From: a virus | Length of the DNA: 64,000 nucleotides | Direction: 5' to 3' (one strand) | Virus record (IMG/VR): IMGVR_UViG_3300048672_000219 | Coordinates: 19,455-83,454 of that record | In this document: positions 5,276 to 59,738 of the stretch, piece by piece | Layout of the letters: every line of letters starts with the position of its first letter | Numbering within the stretch: the first letter of the stretch is position 1 | The notes under the pieces: model-generated | Database searches by the model: none | Told to the model about the DNA's origin: nothing | What the model saw: only the letters and a program-made list of their open reading frames with translations | Position numbers and translations under genes: made by a program

Positions 5276-5304
5276 ATGATAGACTAAATTTTACGGGTTG
5301 TCAA
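5276..5304 (-). promoter_or_regulatory. sigma70 promoter
   Basis: TTGACA-17-TATCAT. Confidence 0.65.
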
Positions 5305-5969
5305 GTGGCTTTCCACGTTTCTTCTACAACAGGAAATGCTTGATTAACAGCTTCAGCAATCAAACGTGCCAGCATGACATGTTCCTCTTGTGTAACACCT
5401 TTCTCTAGTCGCACTTGCAGATAATGCACCCAAGAACGAATCGTACCATTCACATAAGCACGAGACATTGTTAGCCCTTCCGGCAGCAAAGTTCTGGCAA
5501 CCTCTTTAGCAATGCCTTTCTCAATTGCTTGAGTGTAATAATGCTTAACACTGTCAAGAAGATACTTCTGAGACTGTAACCACCACTCAGCAAGCTCTTT
5601 GTCATTCGTTTCAATACTATTCTGACGATTCTTATTATCTTGCAGGCGAACATCCCGATAACAGAAGGCATCACCCAAAGAAGTTACATCAGCATAACGC
5701 TGAGAGAACTCTTGGAAACTGAAGCTGCGATGACGCAGAAGTTGACGCATAATATCGCGGGGCGCTTCCACTTCTACAACGGCATTAGCCATCTCAAGAG
5801 GACTCCAATGGTTATGCTTGACAAGGTACGCAAGCAGCTTGTCAGCAGTGTCCATATTCATTTGATTGTTTGGATTACTCACTCGTGCGCAGAACGCAAT
5901 CAGTTCTTTGGCATTGTCAATACCTTCTACAACAGGTTTAGTTACTGCGATTAGTTTTGCATTCAGCAT
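5301..5969 (-). CDS. thyX: flavin-dependent thymidylate synthase
   Basis: RHRSFSFQEFSQRY ThyX motif; HWSPLE; KEVARTLLP. Confidence 0.95.
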   Translation of the reverse strand: MLNAKLIAVTKPVVEGIDNAKELIAFCARVSNPNNQMNMDTADKLLAYLVKHNHWSPLEMANAVVEVEAPRDIMRQLLRHRSFSFQEFSQRYADVTSLGDAFCYRDVRLQDNKNRQNSIETNDKELAEWWLQSQKYLLDSVKHYYTQAIEKGIAKEVARTLLPEGLTMSRAYVNGTIRSWVHYLQVRLEKGVTQEEHVMLARLIAEAVNQAFPVVEETWKAT

Positions 5970-18736: not shown

Positions 18737-18810
18737 ATTATAACAGACCAGTTTAGAAAAGTCAATACAAAATGCTAAAACTTGACAAAAGTTTACAATC
18801 ATGTTATAAT
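18737..18810. promoter_or_regulatory. divergent sigma70 promoter pair at the strand switch
   Basis: Minus: TTGACT-17-TATAAT (18765-18737). Plus: TTGACA-17-TATAAT (18782-18810). Confidence 0.85.
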
Positions 18811-18851
18811 TCTGTTAGGTGATATTGCCGTATTGACATAGAGGATTTAGG

Positions 18852-19907
18852 ATGAAAGAGGATAAGAAAATTGCCAGAGTTGGTGATAAGTATATGCTGA
18901 AATGTGGAGTAGAAGTTGAAATTGTTGAAATAATTTCAAACAAAGATGTATTAGTTACTGACGGAAAAGCTTTTAAGAATTGTCGGTTTTACAATTTAGT
19001 AAAAGGAGGTGTCGCATGGATCGTTGACGGTATTTTACGCACTGCGTACTACACTGGAAATGTAAAGAAATGTGAGCCGCCGGTTAAAGTTGGTGAGATT
19101 TTCAAATTAAATTGTGGAGTGTCTGTCTCAATTAAAGAGTATTTAGGGAGCGACAGAGTTTTAGTAGAGGATGAGCATCAAAATTTAAAAAACGTATCTC
19201 TTAGTTCACTGAGAAAAGGTCATGTTTCGTGGCTTGGAAAAACTAAAACAGAGGTGAATAGACCACCAGTTGAGATAAACATAGGAGATGTGTTTTCAAG
19301 TAAAAGATTCGGTGAGTTTGAGATAATAGGGTACTCTTTCCATAAGAAAAACTTATTTAATGTCAGATTTAAAAATTCTGGCGGTGCTATGTGGAATGTA
19401 TCTGCTGTATCCATCTTAAAAGGTACACTTTCCGACAGAAGTAAAGAGCATGTGTTCAGAAATAAACCCTATAGGCTAGGTGGTAGATTTTATTCAACGG
19501 TTTCTGGGTGGTGTACAGTAATTGACTTAGAGTCAAGTACGAACATTACTGTACAATGGGATCACACAGGAAACATTCAAAAGACATCATATAGAACTCT
19601 AAAGAAAACTACATTCTGTGAAAATGTTAAGGAAAGTCCTTTGTTTGAGCCAAAAGGACATTACGTTTACATCGCTAAAACTGGTGGGGAGATTGTTTAT
19701 ATCGGTTCTGGAAAAGAACAAAGGTACATGCATTGTATAGACGGAAGATCGAGTAACTACGACCTTAATAGATTGCATTTCAGTAAATACAAAGTTGAAG
19801 TCGAGATTTTCAAAGAGGGTCTTACTAAAAGAGAAGCCCTTGATCTTGAACTATCTTTAATTAGAAAACATAATCCAATTTGTAATATATCTGGTAAATC
19901 TGATTAA
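18852..19907 (+). CDS. putative endonuclease: N-terminal repeats plus C-terminal GIY-YIG domain
   Basis: Repeats of VG..F....G.VEI.E...(K)NV...L.KG; C-terminal HYVYIAK...VYIGSGK..RY...ALDLELSLIRKHNPICN. Confidence 0.7.
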   Translation: MKEDKKIARVGDKYMLKCGVEVEIVEIISNKDVLVTDGKAFKNCRFYNLVKGGVAWIVDGILRTAYYTGNVKKCEPPVKVGEIFKLNCGVSVSIKEYLGSDRVLVEDEHQNLKNVSLSSLRKGHVSWLGKTKTEVNRPPVEINIGDVFSSKRFGEFEIIGYSFHKKNLFNVRFKNSGGAMWNVSAVSILKGTLSDRSKEHVFRNKPYRLGGRFYSTVSGWCTVIDLESSTNITVQWDHTGNIQKTSYRTLKKTTFCENVKESPLFEPKGHYVYIAKTGGEIVYIGSGKEQRYMHCIDGRSSNYDLNRLHFSKYKVEVEIFKEGLTKREALDLELSLIRKHNPICNISGKSD

Positions 19908-27866: not shown

Positions 27867-27895
27867 TTGACAATACTACACTATCGTGCTATAAT
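27867..27895 (+). promoter_or_regulatory. sigma70 promoter
   Basis: TTGACA-17-TATAAT with TG extended -10. Confidence 0.85.
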
Positions 27896-27928
27896 TCTGT
27901 TACGTGAAACCACTATAAGAGGTAATTA

Positions 27929-28841: not shown

Positions 28842-28910
28842 ATAGAAGCCGAAATAAATTGTTGTTTATGTGCAACGTTTAAATTGTCTTTATATAGAAG
28901 CCGAAATAAA
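28842..28910 (+). repeat. 17-bp direct repeat ATAGAAGCCGAAATAAA x2
   Basis: Exact copies at 28842-28858 and 28894-28910 (52-bp period). Confidence 0.9.
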
Positions 28911-28957
28911 CAACCGTCCTAGAGGCGGTTTGTGCATTGTGAAAGGATTGTGTTGTA

Positions 28958-29658
28958 TGAATGAGCATTATGTGTATATGGTAAAACTCGGTGATGAGGT
29001 TGTGTACGTCGGAAGTGGAAAAGGTGATAGGTACAAGCATGTAACCAGCGGTAGAAGTCACAACGAATCTTTGAACTTATTACATAGGCAAGGTATTGCT
29101 GTTGTGCAAGAGTTTGAATATGAGGGCTTAACTGAGATGACAGCTAGAGTGCTAGAGCAAGAGTTAATCGACAAGTACAAACCTCTGTACAATAAAGGTA
29201 AGGCAGCGAACGAGGAAAAGAAAGCTTTACACAAAGAACTTAGTGACGAACTTAAAAGAATCCGTGAGAGTGCCCAGCCTACGGAGTATGCCAGATACAT
29301 GGCTAAAGCTTTGTTTGCATTGTGGAAAGCTACCGGAAACTATCATATCTTGCAAGCATCTTTCGCAGTATCAAGAGCTAACCCAGATTCTAAGATAGTG
29401 ATTACCCAGAATGAGCTATCAGAGTTTGTCAGCAAGTATCAAAATCAATTCAAAGACAAGATGTTCTTTATGCAATGTAAATCCTCTGTCGGTCAAGAAG
29501 TTTCTTATATAACAAGTGTGGATGAAATCTTAGATGAGATCAATAGAGAAGAATCAGCGCAAATAAACTTTATGCACAGACAAGCAAAGAATTTTAACGA
29601 TTTTGTGCGGTTACAAAATAAAGCTTTGTCTTTGCGCGGGCAGGGTGTACTATTCTAA
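28958..29658 (+). CDS. GIY-YIG domain protein
   Basis: HYVYMVK...VYVGSGK..RY.H...GRSHN...LEQELIDKYKPLYN; likely start at MNEHY within ORF 28870-29658. Confidence 0.75.
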
Positions 29659-30525
29659 GTATGCTTAACTTTTAAAGGAGAAACACAATGCAAATAATGC
29701 TAAATGACGAGCAAGCCGACCAGTTCATGGCTCAAATGCTAATGAATGATTACCAGTCAATCAAGAATGGCGAGTGGTCGGAAGATTGCAAGCGCTTCCT
29801 ACCAGCATACGAACTGTTGTTCGAGTCCTATCTAACTCAAAAGCAGATATGGGAAATTAAACAATGATTATCGGCAAAACAGATCAACAGATACACGAAG
29901 CCCGTCAGAAACGATTAGAGCGCTTATACAAGCAAGATAAGCGGGTGTTCCTATGGTGGCCTAGAAAGCTAATAGACGGGCGTATAGCGTGGCTAGAATG
30001 GGCTGAGAAAGACTACATGGTGATTGAAAATGCCTAGATTAGCTGTGCAGCTAATAAGCCCATAATAGCTAATGCACGCTGTTGCTAAAATGAGACAGAC
30101 AACTAATTTGTATGTTTTGTGCAAATAGGGCTTGCATTCTGCTCTGATCGGTGTAGAATAGAACTTATTCGATAACGCAACGGAGCAAATATTATGAGTG
30201 CATGGAATTTGGGTTACAAGGAAGCAATGAATGATTGTGGATCAATCTACAACAATCCTTTCAAGTACGGTGAAAGTGGCTATGCTGATTGGATAGCAGG
30301 CTATGAAGCACGAATTATTGAAGAAACCGAACGGATGGGTGCATAATTATGAAAACCTTCTCTTTCGATACCTTCGCAGCTAACGGCAAATTCCTGAAAG
30401 TGGTTCGCGTAGAAGCCGCTCTCCGTTCGGAAGCTAAAGCAATTGCAGGGGCAATGGACGGTGTTGCTAAGGCTGTATGCACTAGCGTTGCTTAATGAGT
30501 TACAGGCCACAAGCGGGACATGTGA

Positions 30526-30550
30526 CGCCACCTTCGGGTGGCTTTGTTGT
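30526..30550 (+). terminator. intrinsic terminator ending the early block
   Basis: GCCACC-TTCG-GGTGGC followed by TTTGTTGTTT. Confidence 0.8.
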
Positions 30551-30570
30551 TTGTGCGGTATGTATCTAAA

Positions 30571-30656
30571 TAAGAACTATTCTCATCTACTATCAGTATT
30601 CTATATGAGAATCATTCTCAATACGCTGCTGTAATCCTTAATAAGAACTATTCTCA
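30571..30656. promoter_or_regulatory. three Fur-box-like 7-1-7 sites
   Basis: TAAGAAC-T-ATTCTCA (30571), TGAGAAT-C-ATTCTCA (30606, perfect palindrome), TAAGAAC-T-ATTCTCA (30642), versus Fur consensus TGATAAT-N-ATTATCA. Confidence 0.65.
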
Positions 30657-31370
30657 ATTGGCAGTCTGTTACACATCCACTCGCCTCCCTTCTTACCTTC
30701 CCCGATCTGTCCTCCAAAAGTCATCTCGACAATGCCTCTTCGCCAGTGCCAGAATCCTTATTTAGAATGAACGTTCAGTCTTAGTAGACCAGTCGTCTAC
30801 AACAAGCCAGCAATTATCCGCAGCGAACATACGAGCATAGCGAGTAGACCCTTGCCAATGACAGATTTCCAGCAGCATGGGAACGTGGATAGGAAGCGAA
30901 TACAAGCCGCTGGTGAGGATTTTGCAGAGGTGGCAATGGGGGTGGTAGCGTGGAGGGTGGATAGGGGCTGTAACGGCTCATTTTCAGGAAGCCGAGATAT
31001 CATGCTGGTGAATGGGGAATTGAGTGTAAAAAGGCGCTAAAGTGAAAATCCTTATCAACGATTGGCCTTTAGATGTAGCGGGTTTGCGACAGAAATACCC
31101 TATCAAAAGTGATTTTGAGGGCAATATCAAATATTTTGTTGACAGAGTGATCGGGATGTGGTATGATAGGGGCGTGGTTACACAACACTCGCGTTACTGG
31201 CTCATTAGATATTCTTATCAAACATACAATAAATATTTGCCATAAAGTGACTTCCAGAAAAAATTATTTTTAAAAATTTGAGAAAATATTTTAGAAAACT
31301 CTTGCGCATAAAATAGCAGTGATATATAATGTCTATATTAGTTGGAAATTATTCTGCAAAGGAGGATGAA

Positions 31371-32030
31371 ATGAAGAAACTTATAGGCTACTGTAGGGTC
31401 TCCACGGAACGTCAATCGAACGTCCGAAACGGTCTTTTAGCGCAGCGAGAAGAGATTTTAAGGTTCGCAAAGACGCACGGATACGAGGTCATAAGTATCG
31501 TTGAAGAGTCAATTTCGGGTAAATATGGTCTGGAATACCGCCCTATTTTGTCCGAAGCAATTGAACAAGCAAACAAGATTGGAGCAACAATTGTTGTCTC
31601 AAAACTTGATCGTTTTAGCCGTGATGCTTTGTTCGTAATGCAGCTTATGAAAACGAAATTGAAGTTTGTTGTGGCAGAGTTGGGAGAGGAAATCACGCCG
31701 TTCATGTTGCATATTTATTGTGTCTGTGCAGAACAAGAACGGGTGGTTATTGGCAAACGTACAAAAGCCGGACTTGAGCAAGTAAAAGCCAAGGGTGTGG
31801 TTCTGGGCAATAAAAAGAATCTCGATGTTGCTGGAAAGAAAGGCGCAGTGGCTACAGCGGTGATGGCAGACAAGTTTGCAGACATTATGAAACCAATTGC
31901 AAAGCCTATGTTGGAGTCTGGTATGTCCCTTCGTGCTGTAGCAAAAGCACTAAATGATAAGGAAGTTAAAACTGCACGTGGTGGGGTGTGGACTGCTCAG
32001 ACTGTAGCCAACATCCGGTCTCGGTGGTAA
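31371..32030 (+). CDS. serine recombinase (resolvase/invertase catalytic domain plus C-terminal recombinase DNA-binding domain)
   Basis: GYCRVSTERQ with catalytic Ser; IVVSKLDRFSR; AEQERVVIGKRTKAGL alphaE helix; SLRAVAKALN...TARGGVW; GGAGG RBS; promoter TTGCGC-17-TATAAT at 31302-31330. Confidence 0.93.
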   Translation: MKKLIGYCRVSTERQSNVRNGLLAQREEILRFAKTHGYEVISIVEESISGKYGLEYRPILSEAIEQANKIGATIVVSKLDRFSRDALFVMQLMKTKLKFVVAELGEEITPFMLHIYCVCAEQERVVIGKRTKAGLEQVKAKGVVLGNKKNLDVAGKKGAVATAVMADKFADIMKPIAKPMLESGMSLRAVAKALNDKEVKTARGGVWTAQTVANIRSRW

Positions 32031-32085
32031 TCAAGAAGCTACTCAAATCTATTCGGTTTGGGTGGCTTTAATTTTAACCAGACTA

Positions 32086-32547
32086 TTAACTATTTAACAG
32101 TATGTCATCAATAGTCTTCAATGTATTTGAAACAGACTTAGCATACCATTTCTTACCTCTGGCTGTTTTCACTTCCATCTCATTTAGGTAATCAGCTATT
32201 TCTCTATAGACCAAACCCATTTCACGCATTGGTATAAGATATAGTGATACACTTTTTGCAAAATCTACTTTCTCTTTCTGTATCTGAGCATTTGCCAATT
32301 CTCTAGCTTTTTCTCCATGCAGAGAAATTTTAGGATTCGCCATACCGTGAAGTTTTCCTTGAGACTTAGCTCTTGCAAACCCTTCTTTAGTCAATTGCGC
32401 ATGGTTGTCTCTTCGTTTCCATCCACCATCATGTACTTTGTTATGGCACTCACCACACAGAGGTATCGTCCTAGTCCCTCCCATACTTTTAGGAATTACA
32501 TGGTGGTCTTCTGTAGCAGGTTTATCACATTCAAAACAATAGTTCAT
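32086..32547 (-). CDS. HNH endonuclease fused to a serine-recombinase-type alphaE helix and DNA-binding domain
   Basis: CFEC...HHVIPKSMGG...LCGECHNKVH HNH motif; LTKEGFARAKSQGKLHG; YREIADYLN...KTARGKKW. Confidence 0.8.
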   Translation of the reverse strand: MNYCFECDKPATEDHHVIPKSMGGTRTIPLCGECHNKVHDGGWKRRDNHAQLTKEGFARAKSQGKLHGMANPKISLHGEKARELANAQIQKEKVDFAKSVSLYLIPMREMGLVYREIADYLNEMEVKTARGKKWYAKSVSNTLKTIDDILLNS

Positions 32548-32561
32548 ATTTCCCTTCCCAT

Positions 32562-32588
32562 AAAAGAAAGGGAGCACAAAGGCTCCCT
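32562..32588 (-). terminator. intrinsic terminator between the HTH gene and the HNH-recombinase gene
   Basis: Minus strand GGGAGC-CTTTGT-GCTCCC-TTTCTTTT. Confidence 0.7.
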
Positions 32589-32593
32589 GTTGA

Positions 32594-32821
32594 TTACATT
32601 TTTCTTACTTTAGAAATCAAGTCTTGCAACTGAGCAATTACTTCTTTCTTGAATTCCACTTTAAACTCATCTCGTTTAATACTTCCTTTCTCTACATTCC
32701 GAAGCTCCTTAGAACACCATGCAACACTACAACCTAGTTGTTGGGATATTTCTGCAAAGGACATGCCCTCTTGTCGCATTCGTTTTGCTTCCTCAATATC
32801 AAATTTTCGTACATTAGTCAT
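32594..32821 (-). CDS. helix-turn-helix DNA-binding protein
   Basis: MRQEGMSFAEISQQLGCSVAWCSKEL; own promoter TTGACA-17-TATAAT at 32877-32849. Confidence 0.8.
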   Translation of the reverse strand: MTNVRKFDIEEAKRMRQEGMSFAEISQQLGCSVAWCSKELRNVEKGSIKRDEFKVEFKKEVIAQLQDLISKVRKM

Positions 32822-32873
32822 ATTACTCCTTTCGTGTAATTAACAGATATTATAGCACAAGAGTTCAGTTTTG

Positions 32874-33173
32874 TCAAATCTCCTCTACATATGTATCATC
32901 ATTCTTTAGGATTCCTTTTGGATTATTATCAATCCAGATAATACCATTCTTCCTATACCCATGCATCTTCAAGAATTTCTTCTTAGCCATACCAGAAGTG
33001 TAATAAACAAGGTTGTTAGGAAACTGGCGAACAACCACTTCAGCTTCATCCCCATGACGTGCTGTAACAACAATCAATGGTTGATCGTTCTCATTAGCAA
33101 TCCTCACCACTTGCTCCCAGAATATAGGATTGTCCGTGTAAGTACCATCATAGTCTAGTGCGATTGTTTTCAT
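32874..33173 (-). CDS. small HAD-superfamily protein
   Basis: IALDYDGT motif I; IVVTAR motif II; IWIDNNP motif IV. Confidence 0.7.
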   Translation of the reverse strand: MKTIALDYDGTYTDNPIFWEQVVRIANENDQPLIVVTARHGDEAEVVVRQFPNNLVYYTSGMAKKKFLKMHGYRKNGIIWIDNNPKGILKNDDTYVEEI

Positions 33174-33321
33174 CGTTGTTTCTCCTTTAATTGAAAATCG
33201 GCCACTTCTTTTAGTTGTCCCAACATCCTACTCATTTCAGCAGGAGTAGTGTTATGAATCCCCTCCAGCATAAGCTGCAATTTCTTCTTAAAGTAGTCGG
33301 CATCTAGCCCATACTCATTGT

Positions 33322-33864
33322 TCATTTCTTCTCCTTTGTCAATTCATAATAACGCTTCAAGAATTTCTTATATGCCATCTTACTACTCCAAGGTTTAATC
33401 ACCTCATCCAGAGGCTTTACGTTGCGGTACATGCGATCAAGTTTGGTCGTAGGAGACAAATCCCTACGCTCTGTAACAAATGCAATAGTGTCTGCCAGCT
33501 TGATTTCCTTATCAAATGGAAACTGAATACCAAAACGCTTTGCCATGTCTGCTTCTAGCTTGTGTTCGATTTCACTATAAGCTGGAATCATAACTTTCAA
33601 GGGTTTATTAATGTCCTTCATAAAACCCTCTACGGCATCATGCAGCAAACCATCCAATGCTAGGTGCTCTGGTACAATATAACTTACGAGAACGCAATGC
33701 TGTGCAACACTCATAAATTCAGACGTATGCCCATTACTTCGGCTTTCACGAGACAAGCCTAGAGCAATGTCTTCAATATCATACACAGAGTTCTCAGGAT
33801 TGGCAAAGTCAATGAAATGCCCATTCATAAGCTGCATAACAGGTTTTAGTTTGTTTGTGTCAAC
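33322..33864 (-). CDS. HD-domain phosphohydrolase (YfdR/YfbR-like deoxynucleotidase)
   Basis: DIEDIA.GLSR..R.NGHT...SVAQHC...LLHDAVEG...DI..PLK...IKLAD...TERRDL. Confidence 0.85.
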   Translation of the reverse strand, partial: VDTNKLKPVMQLMNGHFIDFANPENSVYDIEDIALGLSRESRSNGHTSEFMSVAQHCVLVSYIVPEHLALDGLLHDAVEGFMKDINKPLKVMIPAYSEIEHKLEADMAKRFGIQFPFDKEIKLADTIAFVTERRDLSPTTKLDRMYRNVKPLDEVIKPWSSKMAYKKFLKRYYELTKEKK

Positions 33865-38806: not shown

Positions 38807-39763
38807 ATGGGTAAAGACAATATAAAGCGTACAAATGAGTACATTATTGACAAGTCAAAAGAGTTACATGGAGAGCATACTTACGGGTATGATAAACTTG
38901 AGTACATCAACACTAAGAGTAATATAATATTGCTGTGCAATAAATGCAATGATTATTTCAGCGTCACGGCAGGAGCACACGTTGGAAGCAGAAGAGTAGG
39001 CTGTCAAAGATGTAGTGCAGAACGTAGAACCAAAGCTCAGACAGGAAGTAAAGAGCAAATGATTGCAAAAGCATTGTTAAATCACCCTCACGGAGCTTTC
39101 AATTATGATCGAGTAGAGTACAAAACGGCGAGGATTAAAGTTGAAATAGGCTGCAATACATGCGGGGTGTGGTTTTGGCAAGAGCCACATCAACATACAA
39201 TAGGTGTTGGTTGCAAGAATTGCAGAAACATTAAATTGGCAAAAGACAGAAGTCATTCCAAAGAACAATTTATAGAGGAAGCTATCAAGATCACCGGAGA
39301 TAAGTATGATTATAGCTTAGTAGAGTACAAGAATGCAAGAACATATGCAGAGATAATCTGCAACGACTGTGGATCACATTTCAAGAAGAAGCCTACTGAG
39401 ATATTGAATGGTCAGGGCTGCAAATGCCACAACAAAGGTGGATATGGATATGATCCAAAACAAGCTGGAATTCTTTATGTGCTAGAATGCGGAGACATAA
39501 CTAAAATCGGTATTACAAATAAAAGATTGTCAAGTAGAATAAAAGCGGTAAGTTCTTCGTTTGGTGCAAAATTTAAAGAAATTAAAACTTATAATCTTGA
39601 AGGTCAATTCTGCACCGACTTAGAGACACAGTTGCTAATTGAATTACGAAGTAAATATAGAAATCCTATTCAAAAGTTTGATGGGTACACAGAATGTTTT
39701 TACTATGTAGATAGAGCAAAATTACTGAATAGAATTGAAGAATTGATTAAGGAGAATAAATGA
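38807..39763 (+). CDS. free-standing putative homing endonuclease (repeated Zn-binding domains plus GIY-YIG-like C-terminus)
   Basis: Three repeats of Y.Y..VEY......I.C..C...F......H..G.GC..C; LYVL...TKIGIT...R...LE...FDGYTECF. Confidence 0.8.
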   Translation: MGKDNIKRTNEYIIDKSKELHGEHTYGYDKLEYINTKSNIILLCNKCNDYFSVTAGAHVGSRRVGCQRCSAERRTKAQTGSKEQMIAKALLNHPHGAFNYDRVEYKTARIKVEIGCNTCGVWFWQEPHQHTIGVGCKNCRNIKLAKDRSHSKEQFIEEAIKITGDKYDYSLVEYKNARTYAEIICNDCGSHFKKKPTEILNGQGCKCHNKGGYGYDPKQAGILYVLECGDITKIGITNKRLSSRIKAVSSSFGAKFKEIKTYNLEGQFCTDLETQLLIELRSKYRNPIQKFDGYTECFYYVDRAKLLNRIEELIKENK

Positions 39764-49921: not shown

Positions 49922-50033
49922 TCAAATTTGACAGAATTGTATCGTCATGATATAATTCTGTTTACTAGAGAGACACGTTGCGAAACGCTCTCTCTTAAAC
50001 TATTTAAAAATTAGATATTTTAAGAGAAGCGTT

Positions 50034-52106: not shown

Positions 52107-55100
52107 ATGGCAGATATTAATATTACAGTAGCCAGTAATGGTGTAGATGAGGCAACAAAGCGCATGAATGATGCGGCTAGTGCTGCCGATAAGTTAGATA
52201 ACAAAGTTGAAAAACTTGGCAAAACTTCCGAGGCTGCTTCTAAGAAAATATCAAGTGTGTTTAAAGCTCTTGATGAGGCAGCTAAATCTGCTGCCCCTTC
52301 ATTAGAAGATTTGTTTCAAGCATATCAAAAACTTGAAAATCAAATTCAACAAAATGTTGTACAGAATAGCGCGTTGGCTAATGCAATGCGTACAAATACT
52401 TCGGCTGTCAATAACCTCACCTCTGCACAAGTTGGACTCAATAGCAATCTGAGCAGTACACAATCAAATTTAGCTGCTGTAGATAGATCGCAACGTTCGT
52501 CCAATGAGTCTATGAGAGAGGCTCACGCCCTTGCTCGTGGACTTTCTGGTTCTTTTGGTGCTTTGTGGGTTACTTACGGAAACATCGCAGGGATGTCAGT
52601 TGGCCTAGCAATTGGTCAAGCGCTTAAAGGTATTGTATCTGTCGGCAGAGATGTGGAAAGCACTTTAGAGGGTATTCGTGTAAGAGGCAATGAGACTGTA
52701 GACTCTGTTAATGAAATTCGCAAGTCTGTTGAAGACTTGGGCAAAGGTGTCTACGGGCCACAAGAAGTAGCTAAAGCATTTGAGACTTTGATTCTTGCAG
52801 GTTTGAATGCTAATCAAGCTCTTTCTGCAATCAACTCCACCATGAATCTTGCTGTGGCGGGTGGCACTTCTTTGGAAAAGTCTGCATCTACGCTGGTTTC
52901 TGTTGGCACTTCTATTGGGTATGTTGCGGAAGGTTATAACCGTGTTGGTGACGTTATTTCCAAAACGGCTGCTCTATCTATGTCTAGCGTAGAAACTCTA
53001 TCCGAGGCATTTAAATCAGCGTCAAGCGTAGCTTCTCTGTATGGTGTCACTCTAGAAGATATCGGTACTTCTTTGGGTGTGCTGTCCAATCTTGGCATTC
53101 AAGGTAGTGCTGCTGGTACTGCCCTGAAGAATATGTATAAAGAGCTTAACTCTGAAGCTGACAAGGTACAAAAGACCTTTAAAGAGTTGGGATTAACTCA
53201 GCTTTCATTCAAAGATTCTGCTGGTAATTTCAAACCGCTGCTTGAAGTTGTCAAAGAGCTTGATGCGTCTCTCAAACAATTGAGCGGGAGTGATGAGAAA
53301 CTGGCAATTGCCCGTTTGTCTAATGAACGTGGTTTGCGTCTGATTACAGCAGCACTCGACCAATACCGTGTCAAGACAAGTGAATCAACTAATGCTCTTG
53401 AGGATTTCCAAGGCAACGTGACAGATAGTTACGGCTTTATGGCAAAAGCTGCTGTGCAAATGTCATTGACAGCAGACAATCAAATGAAAATGGTTACGAA
53501 TAGCATGAAGACAGGATTTGCTTCTGCTTTTGAAACTATTCAACCTGAAATCATTAGCGTTTCGTCTAGGCTCAAAGAGGCATTCCAATCAGAAGGTTTT
53601 AAAGAAGCACTGCGCTCTCTTGCGTTGTTGTTTGCAAATATGGCGGAAGCAATTGCAAGCAATCTGCCTGTTGTGATAAAGTTGGCGGAAGCCTTTGTGG
53701 CATTAAAGGCAGGTTTCATAGTGGCAGCAGTGTGGCAATCTGCTGCCACGGGAATCTTGGCAGTTCGTGAGGCTATGCTGGGACTTGCAACTGCATCTGC
53801 TGCGGTTAATGCCACAATGGGTGCTGTAGCGGTTGTTGTTGGTGTTGCAGCGGCTGCGTGGTATGCTTACTCTTCTGCCCAAGAGGATGCTAACAAGGCA
53901 CAAAAAGACGCAATTGACTACAGCAAAGGCTATATCGAAGGTATTCGTGCAGAAGCAGACAATCTTGAAAAAGTTAATGAAAAGCTGCGTGAAGGTATTG
54001 CTTTAAAAGACGTACAGAAGAAAGTGGAATCAGATAACTCTCGTCTGCTTCAAATTCAAAAAGAGAATGACGCTGTAGAAGAAGCCCGTAAGAATCTTGA
54101 AAAAGCAAACGAAGCAGCAACTAAGTATTCATCTCAAAACAACATTGATAAAATGATTGCAGCACGAGAGGCATTAGCTGCTGCGGAGGAGCATCAGAGA
54201 CAATCCGCCATCAATGCTTTTGATGAAGAACTGCGCTTGAACCGTCTTGCAAAAGAAAATGCTGAGTTGGTTTTGCAAGCTCAGAAGAATGCTCAGAGTG
54301 GTCGTGATGAGCCTACAAAAACATTATCTCATGAAGATAAAACTAAAGCAATGGGCTTGTCTGCAATTGAAGCAGAAATTTCAGCTATTCGTGCTTCTTC
54401 TGAAGAAAAGCGCCGCATTCTGATTTCCGAAGAAAAACTCTATGAAGAAACTTATCGTGGAAAAATGATGAGTGTTTTAGAGTATGCTGATAAGGAATCT
54501 AAAGTTCTGAAGGCACGACAGGATTTGGTTACTGAGACTTATGCAAAAGAAGTTAGTGCGATTCTTGTATCAGAAAATCTCAAAGGTCGTACTGAAACAG
54601 AACGAAACGAATTAGCTAAGAAACGATCCGATCTTTACACTAAATGGGTTGATGATATTGCAAAATTGAACGATGCAATGTCTGCAAACGAGGTTTTGGT
54701 ATCCTCTGTATTTAAAAAGGAGAGGGACGAAGCCCAAGCCACTTCGGATAAAGTGATTGAGGCGATAAAGAAACGTACAGCTTCTGTACAAGCCCAAGTT
54801 GACGCTTACAATTCTTTACCAGACTCGGTGCGAAAAGCAGGTGTTACAGAAAAGCAGTTGGCTGATGAAGTGGCACAAGCACAAATTGACGCATTAAAGC
54901 GCAAACGTGCCACGCTTGAAGAATTGTCTGGCTCGACAATGTATGACGCAGATGCAATTGCAAGATATACACGCAATATACAAGAAATGGAAGATGAGCG
55001 GGATGTTCTTGCCGCACGAGAACTCCAGAGAGCCACAAACAAAAATATCCAAGATTATAATACGGCTTGGAAGCAATCTAACAAGCAAATTGGTGATGAT

Positions 55101-58100
55101 ATTGCCAACGCAATCATAGATGGTGGTGGTAAAGGGTGGAAAAAACTAGTCAACGATATGAAACTAGCTTTTGCAAAGCTCATACTGAATCCAATTATTG
55201 CCCCAATTAGTGCAGAACTCGCAAGCTTGACAGCAATTGCTAACCCTTCATCGGCGTCTGCTGCTGAAGGAACATCTTCTGTAGGTATGTTATCATCAGC
55301 AATGAACATCTACAAAGCAGTATCTGGTGGATTCTCGTCTTTGAGTAGTTCTGCCGCCAGTGGTATGCAGTCTGTGCAGAATATGCTTGGTGAAAGATTT
55401 GGTGGAACTGGTGCAGGTGCTGGCAACTCAACAGGAGCGTTTGCTAATTCCTTTGGCGAGATTGCTGGAAAAGCAGCAGGCTTTGCAATCGGGCAAACCT
55501 TGAATAAATCTTTGTCTGGTGAATTCCAAGTAGGTAGTGGATTTGGTAAAGTTGAAACTATTGCCACAGCAGTAGCATCTTATTTTGGCCCTCAATTTGG
55601 TGCAATTGCTGGTGCGGTGAGTGGCCTTGTAAATAAACTGTTTGGCATGGGTTCCAAGAATATCTCATCTCAAGGTATCTCTGGAAATATTACAGAGGAC
55701 GGTGTAACTGGTCAAGCTTATGCCAATTGGTCGCAAAAAGGTGGCTGGTTCCGCAGTGATAAATCAGGTACAGACACTTCTGCATTATCGGCTGATGTAA
55801 TCAATTCATTCCAGAGTGGTTTAACTTCTCTGAAAGCTGCGTCAACTGACTTTGCTAAGAATGTGAATGTTTCTGCTGACGCACTGAACAACTATTCTAA
55901 ATCATTTGATATTCAGTTTGTAGGCTTAAAAGAAGTTAAAGGTACTGCTGCTGAACAAGCTGCCATTATCGAGTCAAATAGTAAGATTCAACAAGAAGCT
56001 GTAACGAAGTTCTTCACCACAATGGGTGACGATATGGCTACTAAGTTGATTCCAAACATTGCTGATTTTGCCAAGAACGGTGAAACTGCTTCTGTGACAT
56101 TGCAACGACTATCTAGCACATTCACAGCAACTAATCAAATTGCAGCAATACTTGGCAAGAGTGTTGAGAGTGTATTTGGCGGTATTGGACTGGAATCAGA
56201 TAAAACCCGTGAGCGCCTTATAGATTTAGCTGGTGGATTGAGTAACCTGCAATCAAAAACTACAGCGTATGCTACAGCTTTCCTATCGGATTCTGAAAAA
56301 TTAGCTCCTGTGCAAAAAGCTCTCTCTGCTGCTATGGAAAATCTTGGTCAATCTTCTGTTACTACCAAAGACCAATTCAAAGCAGTAGTAAACAGTCTTG
56401 ACTTAACCACAGATGCCGGTGCAACGCTATTTAATAATTTGATGGATATTGCTCCTGCGTTTGCTCAAGTTGCTGATGCCGCAGAGGCAGCACAAGCTGC
56501 CACACGTAAGCTGCAAATTGCTCTGTTGGAAGCTCAAGGCGAAAACCTGAAAGCTCAGTCGATGAAGCGGGAAGATGAATTGAAGCCGTTATCAGATTCA
56601 GATAAGGTGATTCAACAACAAATCTACGCTGCTCAAGATAAAGCAATTACTGACAAACTGCTATTGTCTCTAATGCAGGCTCAAGGTGACGCTCAGGGTG
56701 CGCTGGCTGTAACTCGTGCAAATGAATTGAAGCAACTATCTGAAACAGACCAATTGATTCAGAAACAAATTTATGATGCAGAGGATAAAGCTAAAACAGA
56801 GGCTTTAACATTGACTCTTCTTCAAGCTCAAGGGAAAGTTTCTGAAGCATTGAACATTACCCGCGCTAAAGAGCTTGCGTCATTGTCTGAATCGGACCAA
56901 GTTATTCAACGACAAATATATGCGTTGGAAGATAAGGCGAAGATAGATAAGTTGAATCTCTCTTTGACGCAAGCACAAGGAAATGCTCAAGATGCTTTGG
57001 CAATCACTCGTGCAAATGAGCTTGCACAGATGACCGATGCTGAGAAAGTTATTCAACAACAAATTTATCTCACTGAAGACAAAGCTAAAACTGATTCTCT
57101 TAGCTTGGCCTTGCTGCAAGCTCAGGGCAAAGCTCAAGAAGCTTTGAACATTACTAGAGATAAAGAATTAGCTGCATTAAGTGATTCTGATAAAGTTATT
57201 CAAAAGCAAATCTATGCTGCTCAAGATGCCGCTAAAATTGCCTCGTTGCAAATTCAATTAGTGACTGCATTAAGTGGTGCTCAAGCTGCATTAAGTCTGA
57301 CTCGTGCTAAGGAAGTAGAGGGATTGTCTGCTCAAGAGGCAGCGATGAAAGCCACTATTTATGCTGCTCAGGATGCTGCTGTTTCTGACAGGTTGGGTTT
57401 GGAGTTGATCACTGCACAAGGCAGAGCGCAGGAAGCTTTAACAATTACTCGCAACAACGAGTTGGCTGCGTTGTCCGAGTCCGATAAACTAATCAAGCAA
57501 CAAACTTATGCTGCTCAGGATAAGGCTAAAACTGACTCGCTGAACATTGCTCTCCTACAAGCTCAAGGAAAAGTGCAGGATGCTTTGTTTGCCAATAGGG
57601 TAAAAGAGTTGAGCGTATTGAGTGATTCGGACAAGGCAATTCAGCAGCAGATTTATGCTGCTGAAGACAAAGCTAATTCGGACAAACTTGATATTGAACT
57701 GATGCAAGCCCAAGGTAAATCTCAAGAAGCTCTTAACATTACTCGTCAAAATGAGTTGAACGCTCTCTCAAAAAGTGAGCAAGTTATCCAGCAACAAATA
57801 TACGATGCCCAAGATAAAGCCAAAACAGATGCACTAAATCTGGCACTGTTGCAGGAGCAAGGCAAAGCTCAAGAGGCTCTTGCTGTAACTCGTGCAAACG
57901 AACTGGCTTCGCTCTCAGACACTGATAAAGCAATTAAACAGCAGATTTATGCTGCTCAAGATAAGGCTAAAACTGACGCTTTGGCATTGGAATTGATTAA
58001 TGCTCAGGGTTATGCTCAATCATATTTGGCAGCAACTCGTGCCAAAGAGCTTGAGTCGTTAAATGAGACAGACAAGGCAATCAAACAACAGATATACACT

Positions 58101-59738
58101 GCCCAAGACAAAGCTAAGACGGATGCTCTGTTGGTAACTCTGCTGCAAGCCCAAGGTAAAGCTCAAGAGGCTTTGACAACACAGCGAGAGAAAGAGTTGA
58201 GTACGATGAGTGATTCTGATCAAGTCATTCAAAAGCAGATTTATGCTGCGCAAGACAAGGCAAAAATCGATACATTGAATGTTGATCTTCTCCAAGCTCA
58301 AGGAAAGGCTCAGGAATACTTAGCAGCAACAAGGGCTAAAGAGTTGTTTGGTTTATCTGAAGAAGAGAAGGCTATTAAGCAGAAGATATATGCTTCGCAG
58401 GATGCTGCAAAAACCGCAGCTTTAGAGCTTGAACTTGTAAAGCAACAAGGGTTAGATTACAAGGCACTGTTGATAACTCGTGAGCAAGAGCTTTCACAAC
58501 TGTCCGAGTCAGATCAAGTTATTCAGAAGCAGATTTATCGCCAACAAGACTTGAATACTCTGTATGGTTTGAATGTAAAGCTGTTGGACGCACAGTACCG
58601 CTCACAAGAGAGCGTCAACATGCAGCGCGAAAAGACCCTTGCCGGTTTGTCTGCGGAAGCTGCTGTATTGCAAAAGGCTATTTATGCTGCACAAGATGCT
58701 CAAAAAGCTGTTGACACAGGCATGACCAAGCTCACTGCTTCAGTGAATGCTCAAAAGGCTGTAATTGAAGCTCAGTACAAGCAAGCTAGTGATATGCTGG
58801 CTGCACAGAAGAAAGCTGCCACAGACGCTGCCCAATCTTCGATTGACGCAAGCAAAACTAGTTTGTCATCTATTCAATCTATCCAATCTTCGCTGAGTGG
58901 TGCTTTGAAAGATGTTCTTGATAGTTCTACGGTACTCACGCTAAAGGTTCGGAATAACGCTCTAGCTGCACTTCAAGGCATTTCCGGCTCTCGGGACTTA
59001 AACAGCCCTGCAATGATGGATGCTATTAAGACATTGGCAAAACCGTCAGAGCAATTGTACAGCAATCTTGAGGACTATACAAGATCGCAGATGCAAGTCG
59101 CTAATACGATTGACAACCTCAATTCACAGGCAGTTGACCAAGTTTCTTTGGCACAACAATCCGTCGATTTGCAAGAGGCTAATCTGAAAGTCTTGACTCA
59201 ATGGTTTGATAGTCAGCAAGCATCTTTAGATCAGCAGCATACTAACGCAGTGGCAGAACAAGACGCCATCCTTAAAAATGCCCAAGATCAGATTGATGCC
59301 TTGCGAAACATTGACAATAGTGTACTAAGTGTAGAGCAAGCTGTCTCGGACTTGGCTATTGCCATTGCCAATGCTAAGGCAACAACCATAAGTTATGCCC
59401 CAGCAAGTAATTTGTTAGATGTAGCACAAAAAGCTGTCTCTAGCACTTATCCTAGCTTAGATGTTGGAACCAATGCTTTGCCAAGTGACATGACAATTAA
59501 TGCACATGCTGGTGAACGTATTATTCCTGCGGCAGATAATCGAGAAATCATGCGTCGTCTTGAGCAACCCGAGAACGGTTCTAGTGCAGAGATGGTGCAA
59601 TCTATCGAATCACTGAAAGAAACTGTGCGAGCGGGTCAAATCGCTACTCTGCAACTCAATCAACAGATGTACCGCTTGTGGAAGAAATTCGATCAAGACG
59701 GTATGCCTGAAGTACGTGATGTAGAGGCTATTGGCTAA
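52107..59738 (+). CDS. tape measure protein, 2543 aa
   Basis: TP901-type core (GIQGSAAGTALKNM); Ala-rich helical; C-terminal LDVGTNALPSDM...HAGERIIPA. Confidence 0.93.
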   Translation: MADINITVASNGVDEATKRMNDAASAADKLDNKVEKLGKTSEAASKKISSVFKALDEAAKSAAPSLEDLFQAYQKLENQIQQNVVQNSALANAMRTNTSAVNNLTSAQVGLNSNLSSTQSNLAAVDRSQRSSNESMREAHALARGLSGSFGALWVTYGNIAGMSVGLAIGQALKGIVSVGRDVESTLEGIRVRGNETVDSVNEIRKSVEDLGKGVYGPQEVAKAFETLILAGLNANQALSAINSTMNLAVAGGTSLEKSASTLVSVGTSIGYVAEGYNRVGDVISKTAALSMSSVETLSEAFKSASSVASLYGVTLEDIGTSLGVLSNLGIQGSAAGTALKNMYKELNSEADKVQKTFKELGLTQLSFKDSAGNFKPLLEVVKELDASLKQLSGSDEKLAIARLSNERGLRLITAALDQYRVKTSESTNALEDFQGNVTDSYGFMAKAAVQMSLTADNQMKMVTNSMKTGFASAFETIQPEIISVSSRLKEAFQSEGFKEALRSLALLFANMAEAIASNLPVVIKLAEAFVALKAGFIVAAVWQSAATGILAVREAMLGLATASAAVNATMGAVAVVVGVAAAAWYAYSSAQEDANKAQKDAIDYSKGYIEGIRAEADNLEKVNEKLREGIALKDVQKKVESDNSRLLQIQKENDAVEEARKNLEKANEAATKYSSQNNIDKMIAAREALAAAEEHQRQSAINAFDEELRLNRLAKENAELVLQAQKNAQSGRDEPTKTLSHEDKTKAMGLSAIEAEISAIRASSEEKRRILISEEKLYEETYRGKMMSVLEYADKESKVLKARQDLVTETYAKEVSAILVSENLKGRTETERNELAKKRSDLYTKWVDDIAKLNDAMSANEVLVSSVFKKERDEAQATSDKVIEAIKKRTASVQAQVDAYNSLPDSVRKAGVTEKQLADEVAQAQIDALKRKRATLEELSGSTMYDADAIARYTRNIQEMEDERDVLAARELQRATNKNIQDYNTAWKQSNKQIGDDIANAIIDGGGKGWKKLVNDMKLAFAKLILNPIIAPISAELASLTAIANPSSASAAEGTSSVGMLSSAMNIYKAVSGGFSSLSSSAASGMQSVQNMLGERFGGTGAGAGNSTGAFANSFGEIAGKAAGFAIGQTLNKSLSGEFQVGSGFGKVETIATAVASYFGPQFGAIAGAVSGLVNKLFGMGSKNISSQGISGNITEDGVTGQAYANWSQKGGWFRSDKSGTDTSALSADVINSFQSGLTSLKAASTDFAKNVNVSADALNNYSKSFDIQFVGLKEVKGTAAEQAAIIESNSKIQQEAVTKFFTTMGDDMATKLIPNIADFAKNGETASVTLQRLSSTFTATNQIAAILGKSVESVFGGIGLESDKTRERLIDLAGGLSNLQSKTTAYATAFLSDSEKLAPVQKALSAAMENLGQSSVTTKDQFKAVVNSLDLTTDAGATLFNNLMDIAPAFAQVADAAEAAQAATRKLQIALLEAQGENLKAQSMKREDELKPLSDSDKVIQQQIYAAQDKAITDKLLLSLMQAQGDAQGALAVTRANELKQLSETDQLIQKQIYDAEDKAKTEALTLTLLQAQGKVSEALNITRAKELASLSESDQVIQRQIYALEDKAKIDKLNLSLTQAQGNAQDALAITRANELAQMTDAEKVIQQQIYLTEDKAKTDSLSLALLQAQGKAQEALNITRDKELAALSDSDKVIQKQIYAAQDAAKIASLQIQLVTALSGAQAALSLTRAKEVEGLSAQEAAMKATIYAAQDAAVSDRLGLELITAQGRAQEALTITRNNELAALSESDKLIKQQTYAAQDKAKTDSLNIALLQAQGKVQDALFANRVKELSVLSDSDKAIQQQIYAAEDKANSDKLDIELMQAQGKSQEALNITRQNELNALSKSEQVIQQQIYDAQDKAKTDALNLALLQEQGKAQEALAVTRANELASLSDTDKAIKQQIYAAQDKAKTDALALELINAQGYAQSYLAATRAKELESLNETDKAIKQQIYTAQDKAKTDALLVTLLQAQGKAQEALTTQREKELSTMSDSDQVIQKQIYAAQDKAKIDTLNVDLLQAQGKAQEYLAATRAKELFGLSEEEKAIKQKIYASQDAAKTAALELELVKQQGLDYKALLITREQELSQLSESDQVIQKQIYRQQDLNTLYGLNVKLLDAQYRSQESVNMQREKTLAGLSAEAAVLQKAIYAAQDAQKAVDTGMTKLTASVNAQKAVIEAQYKQASDMLAAQKKAATDAAQSSIDASKTSLSSIQSIQSSLSGALKDVLDSSTVLTLKVRNNALAALQGISGSRDLNSPAMMDAIKTLAKPSEQLYSNLEDYTRSQMQVANTIDNLNSQAVDQVSLAQQSVDLQEANLKVLTQWFDSQQASLDQQHTNAVAEQDAILKNAQDQIDALRNIDNSVLSVEQAVSDLAIAIANAKATTISYAPASNLLDVAQKAVSSTYPSLDVGTNALPSDMTINAHAGERIIPAADNREIMRRLEQPENGSSAEMVQSIESLKETVRAGQIATLQLNQQMYRLWKKFDQDGMPEVRDVEAIG
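56505..58703 (+). repeat. 15 tandem 147-bp (49-aa) repeats inside the tape measure gene
   Basis: QIYAAQDK-like motif recurs from 56619 to 58677, exactly 14 x 147 bp. Confidence 0.92.

Follow-up and report, generated by a model that had tools for sequence, protein, structure and literature searches.

This article deals with a 64,000-nucleotide stretch of phage DNA (hereafter the window), which covers bases 19455–83454 of a single viral contig of 83,454 base pairs (bp; CheckV completeness 97%), and with a pair of its genes: one encoding a small serine recombinase, and a convergent one encoding a protein of 153 amino acids (aa) in which an HNH nuclease domain is joined to a recombinase-like DNA-binding arm. 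With a probability of about 60%, we read this second protein as a free-standing homing-type HNH endonuclease equipped with a serine-recombinase arm, its gene being optional, horizontally moving and lodged in a nuclease hotspot beside the recombinase and a helix-turn-helix (HTH) gene. As judged from the sequences, the recombinase would be the resident of this site and the nuclease the visitor; nuclease activity, a target site and homing itself are properties that we infer. What, then, speaks for such a visitor? The gene is present in some relatives and absent from others, its slot is taken over by other nucleases, and its tree disagrees with that of its neighbour, three patterns that a homing cycle fits.

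The HNH-arm protein

The protein begins with a zinc-bound His-Me finger (residues 1–40), followed by a linker, a segment that resembles the C-terminal end of helix E (49–62), a flexible arm (63–76) and a three-helix DNA-binding domain (77–152). The finger has the expected beta-beta-alpha-metal motif, with catalytic and metal-binding histidines and a Cys4 zinc site. It matches PF01844 at 22.4 bits (cut-off 21.4), and the C-terminal part matches PF07508 above its cut-off (E 2.8e-5). C4, C7, H15, H16, C31, C34, H35 and H39 do not vary among 25 relatives with identities as low as 27%, and these four cysteines and four histidines are invariant or nearly so across 150 cluster representatives. In a profile search, the closest solved relatives of the domain are the HNH domains of IscB (E 2.9e-9) and McrA (E 1.3e-7). 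An AlphaFold2 model built on the 25 relatives has a mean predicted local distance difference test score (pLDDT) of 87.6, with values of 90–96 over residues 1–40.

The recombinase

The neighbouring recombinase has the complete layout of its family: a resolvase catalytic domain, helix E, a linker and a recombinase-type helical DNA-binding domain at the C-terminus. It carries the Y-x-R-V-S-T-x-x-Q motif with the nucleophilic serine, as well as D-R-x-x-R. Among 32 relatives D80, R81 and R84 are invariant, R9, V10, S11, T12 and Q15 are nearly so, and E123, R124 and R130 are invariant or close to it. The protein matches PF00239 over model positions 2–144 of 145 (E 2.4e-24), the Pfam family PF07508 “Recombinase” with its C-terminal domain (E 2e-5, over the cut-off), and phrog_125 “DNA invertase” (E 1.4e-33); it also aligns with residues 2–147 of gamma-delta resolvase, through the GVV(F/L)G motif. 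Its start codon, ATG 31371, lies behind an AAGGAGG Shine-Dalgarno sequence. This start and that of the HNH gene were chosen because the homologues start there, those of the recombinase with MKKLIGY and those of the HNH protein just before a CFEC motif. The genome holds this one match to a resolvase catalytic domain. Relatives number 2,923 at E<=1e-5, and many of the closest lie on contigs of 45–95 kilobases (kb).

One arm in two proteins

The initial annotation of this DNA had noticed that the C-terminal halves of the two convergent proteins align, and they do so well: BLASTP finds 33 identical residues in 90 (37%, E 2e-11) between residues 145–228 of the recombinase (233-aa numbering) and residues 63–151 of the HNH protein, and PF07508 is matched by both. 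In either protein the match covers roughly the first 50 of the 102 positions of the model (6–48 and 17–50) and nothing further follows; the full module of large serine recombinases, a complete PF07508 domain with a zinc beta-ribbon, is found in neither. At the DNA level, positions 31950–32005 and 32132–32187 of the coding regions form a 56-nucleotide (nt) inverted repeat that is 71% complementary. No other genes of this genome carry the arm.

That annotation also took the HNH protein for the recombinase with its catalytic domain exchanged for HNH. The architecture agrees, with a junction at a conserved R/L-T-K motif near the C-terminal end of helix E. In both proteins this R/L-T-K...G-V-x-L-G motif corresponds to approximately residues 125–147 of gamma-delta resolvase, whose helix-E boundaries we take to be those of the 1GDT literature and of resolvase structures. 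Since the shared part starts at about residue 125, what the HNH protein retains is the linker, the helical domain and the final turns of helix E; the serine catalytic domain is gone, as is the N-terminal half of that helix. Heterodimerisation of the two proteins, which had also been proposed, is thereby left without a structural basis, because what is shared is the DNA-proximal end of helix E with the linker; the dimer interface is formed by the N-terminal half. A structure prediction of the complex between recombinase and HNH-arm protein gave a score of 0.01 (mark, 0.32), which counts neither way.

A large family of HNH-arm proteins

Is this chimera a local accident? The HNH-arm protein belongs to a large phage family. 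A search with its profile returned 15,041 proteins at E<=1e-3 and 1,803 at E<=1e-10, and at E<=1e-30 there are 261 clusters that match from end to end. Among the top 150 clusters, 111 match PF07508 and 64 match PF01844, and the family tally has none under PF00239. The arm itself comes in several flavours: the type seen in the window, a G..PYGY type as in large serine integrases, and a GRPK-plus-HTH type as in resolvases. To place these genes in their surroundings, IMG/VR was scanned with the HNH motif and 56 HNH-centred loci were fetched with flanks of up to 6 kb, 23 of them with an arm that matches the recombinase profile. The fetched flanks of 18 of these 23 hold no full recombinase. A full recombinase abuts the HNH gene in seven of the 56 loci, and every one of the recombinases found is directly adjacent.

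Among GenBank phage proteins, the search returned recombinase C-terminal halves only, none of the 74 records being a full-length HNH-arm protein at a coverage of at least 80%. Literature searches, whose reach does not extend to supplementary tables, found no paper on a fusion between HNH and a serine-recombinase arm. The best GenBank matches of the arm are labelled “resolvase,” “DNA invertase” or “methionine ABC transporter ATP-binding protein.” The last of these names is given to an arm-matching small serine recombinase in several Phapecoctavirus records (H18, H30, H31, H33, H39, H40), where it looks like an annotation error.

An optional gene in a nuclease slot

The variability of the site is best seen in a survey of 80 recombinase-centred loci (L numbers below designate loci). 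The HNH-arm gene abuts the recombinase in eight of them (L061, L063, L064, L070, L080, L107 and L108/L110, these last two being one contig), and 72 have none. In five (L059/L060, L066, L068, L077) the adjacent gene encodes another protein, of 351–409 aa with a C-terminal HNH domain, and in L079 and L096 it encodes a second recombinase; in L079 this diverged resolvase-domain gene (5296–5916; PF00239, E 4.5e-11) occupies the HNH slot. The models used detected no adjacent nuclease in the remaining loci, where kinds that are not modelled may exist. Within the contig of L110 (237–1745), the recombinase is followed by two tandem HNH-arm genes.

Empty and filled forms of the site can be compared directly. 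L069 has a terminator, a promoter, a Shine-Dalgarno sequence and the recombinase in succession; in L080, an HNH-arm gene of about 560 bp stands between the promoter and the Shine-Dalgarno sequence. The recombinase arms of these two loci are near-identical in the arm tree, and their recombinase genes are 72% identical at the DNA level over 727 nt. L104 is likewise devoid of the HNH-arm gene. Presence is therefore sporadic and insertion between conserved neighbours precise, as in homing genes.

The third gene of the site encodes a small stand-alone HTH protein. Its Pfam matches are weak and all under the cut-offs (HTH_38, 7.3e-5; HTH_23, 2.2e-4; HTH_7, 2.4e-3), and homologues with 46–59% identity occur in ten loci, among them L060, L061, L063 and L064. 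A recombinase lies within about 1 kb in nine of these ten HTH-centred loci, in four different arrangements. What changes is the gene directly behind the HTH gene, which often overlaps its stop codon: an HNH-arm gene in the window, L061 and L063/L064; the gene for a 351-aa HNH protein in L059/L060; a phrog_953 HNH endonuclease gene in L149 and L153/L154 (E 2.9e-63 and 1.3e-27); and the gene for an unknown 141-aa protein in L151. Because HTH and recombinase stay linked while the nuclease is swapped, the site has the pattern of a homing-endonuclease hotspot. The recombinase itself is convergent in the window, L059–L064 and L151, and tandem in L001–L003, L014, L066–L070, L077–L080 and L149. A possible homology between the HTH protein and the recombinase arm was considered and set aside, the profile comparison (60% probability over 21 columns) being too weak to call.

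These surveys bear on the view of the initial annotation that recombinase, HNH protein and HTH protein form a dedicated module. The recombinase and HNH genes do occur together elsewhere above chance, in 7/56 HNH-centred and 8/80 recombinase-centred loci. The dedication is another matter: most recombinase loci have no HNH-arm gene, the slot contains an unrelated HNH gene or nothing, the two trees disagree and most arm-bearing HNH loci are without a recombinase, so that the strict co-occurrence of an obligate two-component recombinase-nuclease system is not found. The annotation had itself named an outcome that would refute its proposal, namely an HNH protein that acts like any other independent homing endonuclease, and the comparative data come close to this.

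Discordant histories and recurrent arms

The HNH gene has a history independent from that of its flanking genes, as homing genes do. L002 and L070 have recombinases that are 99% identical and HNH proteins that are 66% identical over their full length. The HNH protein of L061 is nearest to that of L080 (60%), while the recombinases of these loci are 42% identical and their gene arrangements differ.

The arms were then compared in one tree, for which the recombinase profile served to align 20 HNH arms with 24 recombinase arms; a row needed at least 75 filled columns, which excluded L012, L016, L022 (both genes), L024, L027, L028 and L031. A single clade of all HNH arms is rejected, at a cost of 125.9 log-likelihood units (approximately unbiased test, p-AU 0.00025). 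In three unrelated contigs an HNH arm groups as sister to the recombinase arm next door: L008 (support 100/97), L110 with its two HNH genes (99/90) and L013 (99/98). Identity to the neighbour's arm is 46% in L008, 65–66% for both genes of L110 and 60% in L013, vs. 31–46% to the best other recombinase. L107 behaves otherwise, its HNH arm being 44% identical to the neighbour and 52% to L115. At the DNA level, the close pairs are 68–75% identical over 117–265 nt, and therefore none of them is a fresh duplication. Either the HNH module would have captured the arms of its neighbours several times, or adjacent arms would have been kept alike; on the sequences at hand, both scenarios suggest that selection or opportunity is linked to the recombinase that resides there. 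In the phage group of the window, nine HNH arms cluster together (89/80, not starred), and here the fusion looks older and vertically shared.

A proposed homing cycle

How might such a protein work? The geometry of resolvase on its site serves as the basis for placing the HNH domain. The arm would bind a recombinase-type half-site, and the HNH finger would be placed near the centre of the recombinase site. As it is tethered about 10 residues from a helix-E fragment lying in the minor groove at the site centre, it would nick or cut close to the point attacked by the recombinase serine. One molecule alone would nick the DNA, and a pair bound to a dyad could cleave both strands. During mixed infection, the nuclease would cut relatives that do not have the gene, and recombinational repair would then copy the HNH gene in beside the recombinase. 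The presence of further homing-type nuclease genes in the same genome (two HNH matches and a weak GIY-YIG match) was counted in favour of this homing cycle.

It is tempting, though doubtful, to go one step further and regard the HNH-arm nucleases as “site-mimic” homing endonucleases. A mobile HNH module would repeatedly acquire the arm of the adjoining recombinase, or homogenise with it, so as to cut that recombinase's own crossover or operator site. The phage could not mutate such a target without loss of recombinase function. The junction always falls where helix E ends, which would put the nuclease right at the place where strands are exchanged.

Several observations weigh against the homing endonuclease. 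An asparagine is usually part of the HNH motif, and in the alignment it is not evident in the shortened loop of this protein. A Foldseek search of the whole model against the PDB gave no match at E<=1e-3, and VIA-align of residues 78–153 finds generic helix-turn-helix folds at non-discriminating Z scores of 5–7 (best, a small terminase at 7.3; serine integrase 9dxd, 5.6; Tn3 resolvase, 5.4). In the convergent arrangement of the window, no “empty” pair of HTH and recombinase genes was seen: all five of the surveyed loci L059/L060, L061, L063 and L064 carry an HNH gene, and L151 an unknown one. Within the window's phage group, the HNH arm is 28–42% identical to the adjacent recombinase arm, which is not its nearest relative, and a common target site is therefore doubtful in this lineage. 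The phage is uncultured, and we infer cleavage, binding site and homing of its HNH protein. Finally, the recurrent and tight adjacency of HNH and recombinase genes, in both orders and orientations, could also reflect cooperation.

Alternative explanations

Cooperation would mean that recombinase, HNH-arm and HTH proteins act on shared or related sites, for instance in concatemer resolution, end formation or programmed inversion, with the nuclease recruited through its arm or through heterodimers. It would account for recombinase and HNH-arm genes abutting in several unrelated contigs in three arrangements, for the sister arms of L008, L110 and L013, for an HTH gene that, despite rearrangements, is still found no further than about 1 kb from the recombinase (9/10 loci), and for a recombinase orientation that differs between sub-lineages, convergent in some and tandem in others. 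We nevertheless hold it to be quite improbable, given that 72 of the 80 recombinase loci do without the HNH-arm gene, that unrelated nucleases replace it in the slot and that the HNH and recombinase trees are discordant. Moreover, serine-recombinase dimers are built by the catalytic domain together with the N-terminal half of helix E, both of which the HNH protein lacks, and no long inverted repeats that would bound an invertible segment turned up in the window or in the surroundings of the recombinase gene. At the opposite extreme, the HNH-arm protein might be a non-catalytic or decaying paralogue, the remnant of a recombinase duplication that now only competes with the recombinase for DNA or represses it, or has no function at all. 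A Pfam score barely over the cut-off, the missing asparagine and a perhaps weak expression behind a hairpin would suit such decay. A dead paralogue is nonetheless very hard to reconcile with the invariance of the four cysteines and four histidines, first in the 25 relatives and then, nearly so, in the 150 cluster representatives, with the confident modelling of the HNH part and with the full architecture maintained in 261 clusters.

Might the nuclease instead be a weapon? Equipped with a recombinase-type arm, it would cut where rivals with similar serine-recombinase arms (for instance co-infecting phages, satellites or integrative elements) have their recombination or attachment sites, and it would serve exclusion more than its own spread. 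There are experimental precedents. ICP1 Odn is described as a chimeric nuclease whose DNA-binding domain is copied from a satellite's origin-binding protein and which cuts that origin (Barth et al., 2021; PMC8263062), phage T5orf172 nucleases as sharing RepA_N domains with satellites (PMC10448857), and ICP1 Adi as making the large serine recombinase of a satellite destroy attP (PMC9638900). Many members of the HNH-arm family are also solitary and have arms of the large-serine-recombinase type (G..PYGY). Still, we consider a weapon unlikely here: where a neighbour is present, the nearest arm is that of the phage's own recombinase and not of a foreign element, no satellite or rival site is known for this phage, and much of the idea overlaps with marker exclusion mediated by homing.

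Comparison with known systems

The closest parallels to the homing endonuclease proposed here are the free-standing HNH homing endonucleases of phages, such as the Mob proteins of T4 and those of the I-HmuI type. They too combine a small HNH domain with a separate DNA-binding module, and their genes are also intergenic, optional, situated beside a conserved gene, replaced by other nucleases and dependent on a neighbour's promoter. The module differs, being a serine-recombinase arm in the window and not a NUMOD, zinc-finger or AP2 domain; so does the conserved neighbour, which here is itself a recombinase with a homologous arm, and homing is presumptive. The HNH-arm protein is probably a free-standing HNH homing-type endonuclease, in which a serine-recombinase arm serves for DNA binding.

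Like gamma-delta/Tn3 resolvase, Hin/Gin and the large serine integrases, the 219-aa protein of the window has a full catalytic domain (Ser/Arg/Asp) and helix E. Unlike theirs, its C-terminal domain is neither the short HTH_7 of resolvases nor the recombinase-plus-zinc-ribbon module of integrases, and the HNH protein is without any catalytic serine domain. In IS607-type elements, a serine recombinase (TnpA) accompanies TnpB, an RNA-guided RuvC-type nuclease that cuts the vacant site. There too the genes of a recombinase and a nuclease form a pair, and cutting of element-free sites by the nuclease may help the element to persist. However, the nuclease of the window is an HNH enzyme that would be guided by a protein arm, and there is no evidence of the recombinase moving the pair. 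With ICP1 Odn, the HNH-arm protein would have in common that specificity is gained by copying the DNA-binding domain of another protein and is aimed at that protein's site. Odn, though, joins a T5orf172-type nuclease to a RepA_N-type domain from an enemy satellite, and not HNH to an arm related to that of its own neighbouring recombinase.

It is known that a few DNA-binding modules are shuffled among homing endonucleases; a large family with a serine-recombinase arm, in several lineages the arm of the adjoining recombinase, would reveal a new way for these selfish nucleases to acquire specificity. Part of the mosaicism of a widespread group of uncultured freshwater phages would be accounted for as well. 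Were the nuclease to cut recombinase sites, nuclease and recombinase would have matched specificities that can be read and reused, and the nuclease would be a pointer to the DNA sites and the role of a recombinase that is conserved in phages with no other integration gene. Should the tentative site-mimic idea be true, the nuclease would be the counterpart, guided by protein, of both the TnpA/TnpB pairing and ICP1 Odn, as well as a natural template for nucleases aimed by recombinase arms. For annotation, the lesson is that a PF07508 match alone is insufficient for calling such genes integrases or invertases.

Signals around the three genes

Table 1. Genes and signals of the recombinase/HNH/HTH region (window coordinates).
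Feature	Position	Strand	Remarks
A/T-rich element with imperfect dyad	31262..31303	+	just upstream of the recombinase promoter, runs into its -35 region
Probable recombinase promoter	31302..31329	+	weak -35 TTGCGC (3/6 matches), 16 nt, perfect -10 TATAAT; read by eye
Serine recombinase	31371..32030	+	219 aa; open reading frame (ORF) 31329-32030, likely start ATG 31371
Terminator hairpin behind recombinase	32035..32069	+	15-bp stem, -19.6 kcal/mol, z -6.2
HNH-arm nuclease (putative)	32086..32547	-	153 aa; ORF 32577-32086, likely start ATG 32547, stop 32086-32088
Hairpin and T-run between HTH and HNH genes	32569..32588	-	7-bp hairpin; weak fold, z -1.69
Stand-alone helix-turn-helix protein	32594..32821	-	75 aa; conserved next to recombinase in relatives
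Consensus sigma-70 promoter of the HTH(-HNH) unit	32849..32877	-	TTGACA-17-TATAAT, 12/12 with TG extension

The signals of the region are listed in Table 1. The hairpin behind the recombinase is strand-specific, since the opposite strand folds at -7.6 kcal/mol only (z -0.39). The HNH gene had been placed behind the HTH gene and a terminator, and hence at a low level of expression. The hairpin and its T-run are indeed present, but they are statistically unremarkable (three terminator-like sites in the region vs. 3.1 expected; z -1.69), and low HNH expression in the window can be called plausible on the basis of these letters. According to the minimum-energy fold, the T-run can pair with purine-rich letters that precede the HNH start codon. 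No more than 20 nt separate the HTH gene from the HNH reading frame behind it in L061 and L063.

The A/T-rich element upstream of the recombinase contains an imperfect palindrome (31272–31303). The recombinase leaders of L060, L061, L063 and L151 have the element (AATTTT..AA..TTTT..GAAA.TTT) at the corresponding place and with part of its sequence conserved, and five diverged phages thus share it. Judging by its sequence and place, its candidate roles are those of an operator, a recombinase site and an UP element. No second copy of the 23-nt dyad was found in the window at up to 3 mismatches. An invertible segment was also considered and rejected: inverted repeats that flank the recombinase gene are limited to short A/T-rich words, the window has no long inverted pair plausible as crossover sites, and the upstream dyad stands alone. 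Four sequencing runs list no strand-changing joint, although rare inversions are invisible in the Logan contigs used. A further candidate was an operator shared by the two inward-facing promoters, which contain an 11-nt inverted match (31297–31307 and 32855–32865). It is absent from L060, L063 and L064, and L061 shares only a different 10-mer in its place; the match was taken as chance because it is not repeated in relatives. Contigs break or diverge from the window at about 31293 (source sample; loose ends) and at 32874 (two other runs), and these breaks are taken as no more than a hint of strain-to-strain variation in the three genes.

The noncoding DNA beside the recombinase (30.5–31.3 kb) has no detectable similarity to its counterparts in L001–L003 and L014, and an Rfam scan of 29500–33500 gave no match at E<=1. 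Window positions 30566–30656, directly 3′ of a terminator, hold three 20-nt direct repeats spaced by 35 and 36 nt, the middle one of which contains a perfect 7-1-7 palindrome; one reading considered for them was that of a recombinase site. Next comes a G-rich noncoding stretch that adjoins the recombinase (30816–31067) and is overlapped by several variant contigs. In run X2 the summed contig depth is 440–790 over this stretch vs. about 250 over the recombinase gene, which suggests a noncoding element common to many related phages in the sample. In L001, L002, L003 and L014, a conserved terminator with an A/T element is located just 3′ of the recombinase genes (L001 and L002 are 88% identical over 135 nt).

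The phage and its genome

The phage belongs to a lineage of uncultured freshwater phages with genomes of roughly 45–95 kb. Its portal protein shares about 40% identity with the portal proteins of PAK_P/Otagovirus-like Pseudomonas myoviruses; no near-identical DNA was found in the GenBank phage collection, which holds no near relative. IMG/VR classifies the contig as linear. Its last 126 bases are a copy of positions 9–134, a match that resembles the assembly overlap of a circular or permuted genome; terminal repeats can therefore not be judged from this record. Further along, the genes on the minus strand encode a phrog_4256 protein, a 5′-deoxynucleotidase, a ClpP-like protease and PhoH.

Other nuclease-like genes are scattered over the genome. 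A weak HNH match (E 0.0048) lies in a 318-aa ORF before the terminase region (38807–39763), another HNH match lies outside the window (G000:C1:10480–10647), and a 351-aa ORF (18852–19907) has a weak C-terminal GIY-YIG match (E 0.0035). A 262-aa ORF (28870–29658) has no Pfam match, and its relatives in L077 and L103 are fused to nuclease N-terminal domains. A 41-nt consensus-promoter module (TTGACA ... TATAAT and a common downstream stretch) occurs in three copies with 71–80% identity (18782–18822, 27867–27907, 49928–49968). Lastly, about a dozen tandem repeats of 147 nt (49 aa), 60–74% identical, occupy positions 56523–58700 within a 2,543-aa ORF (52107–59738).

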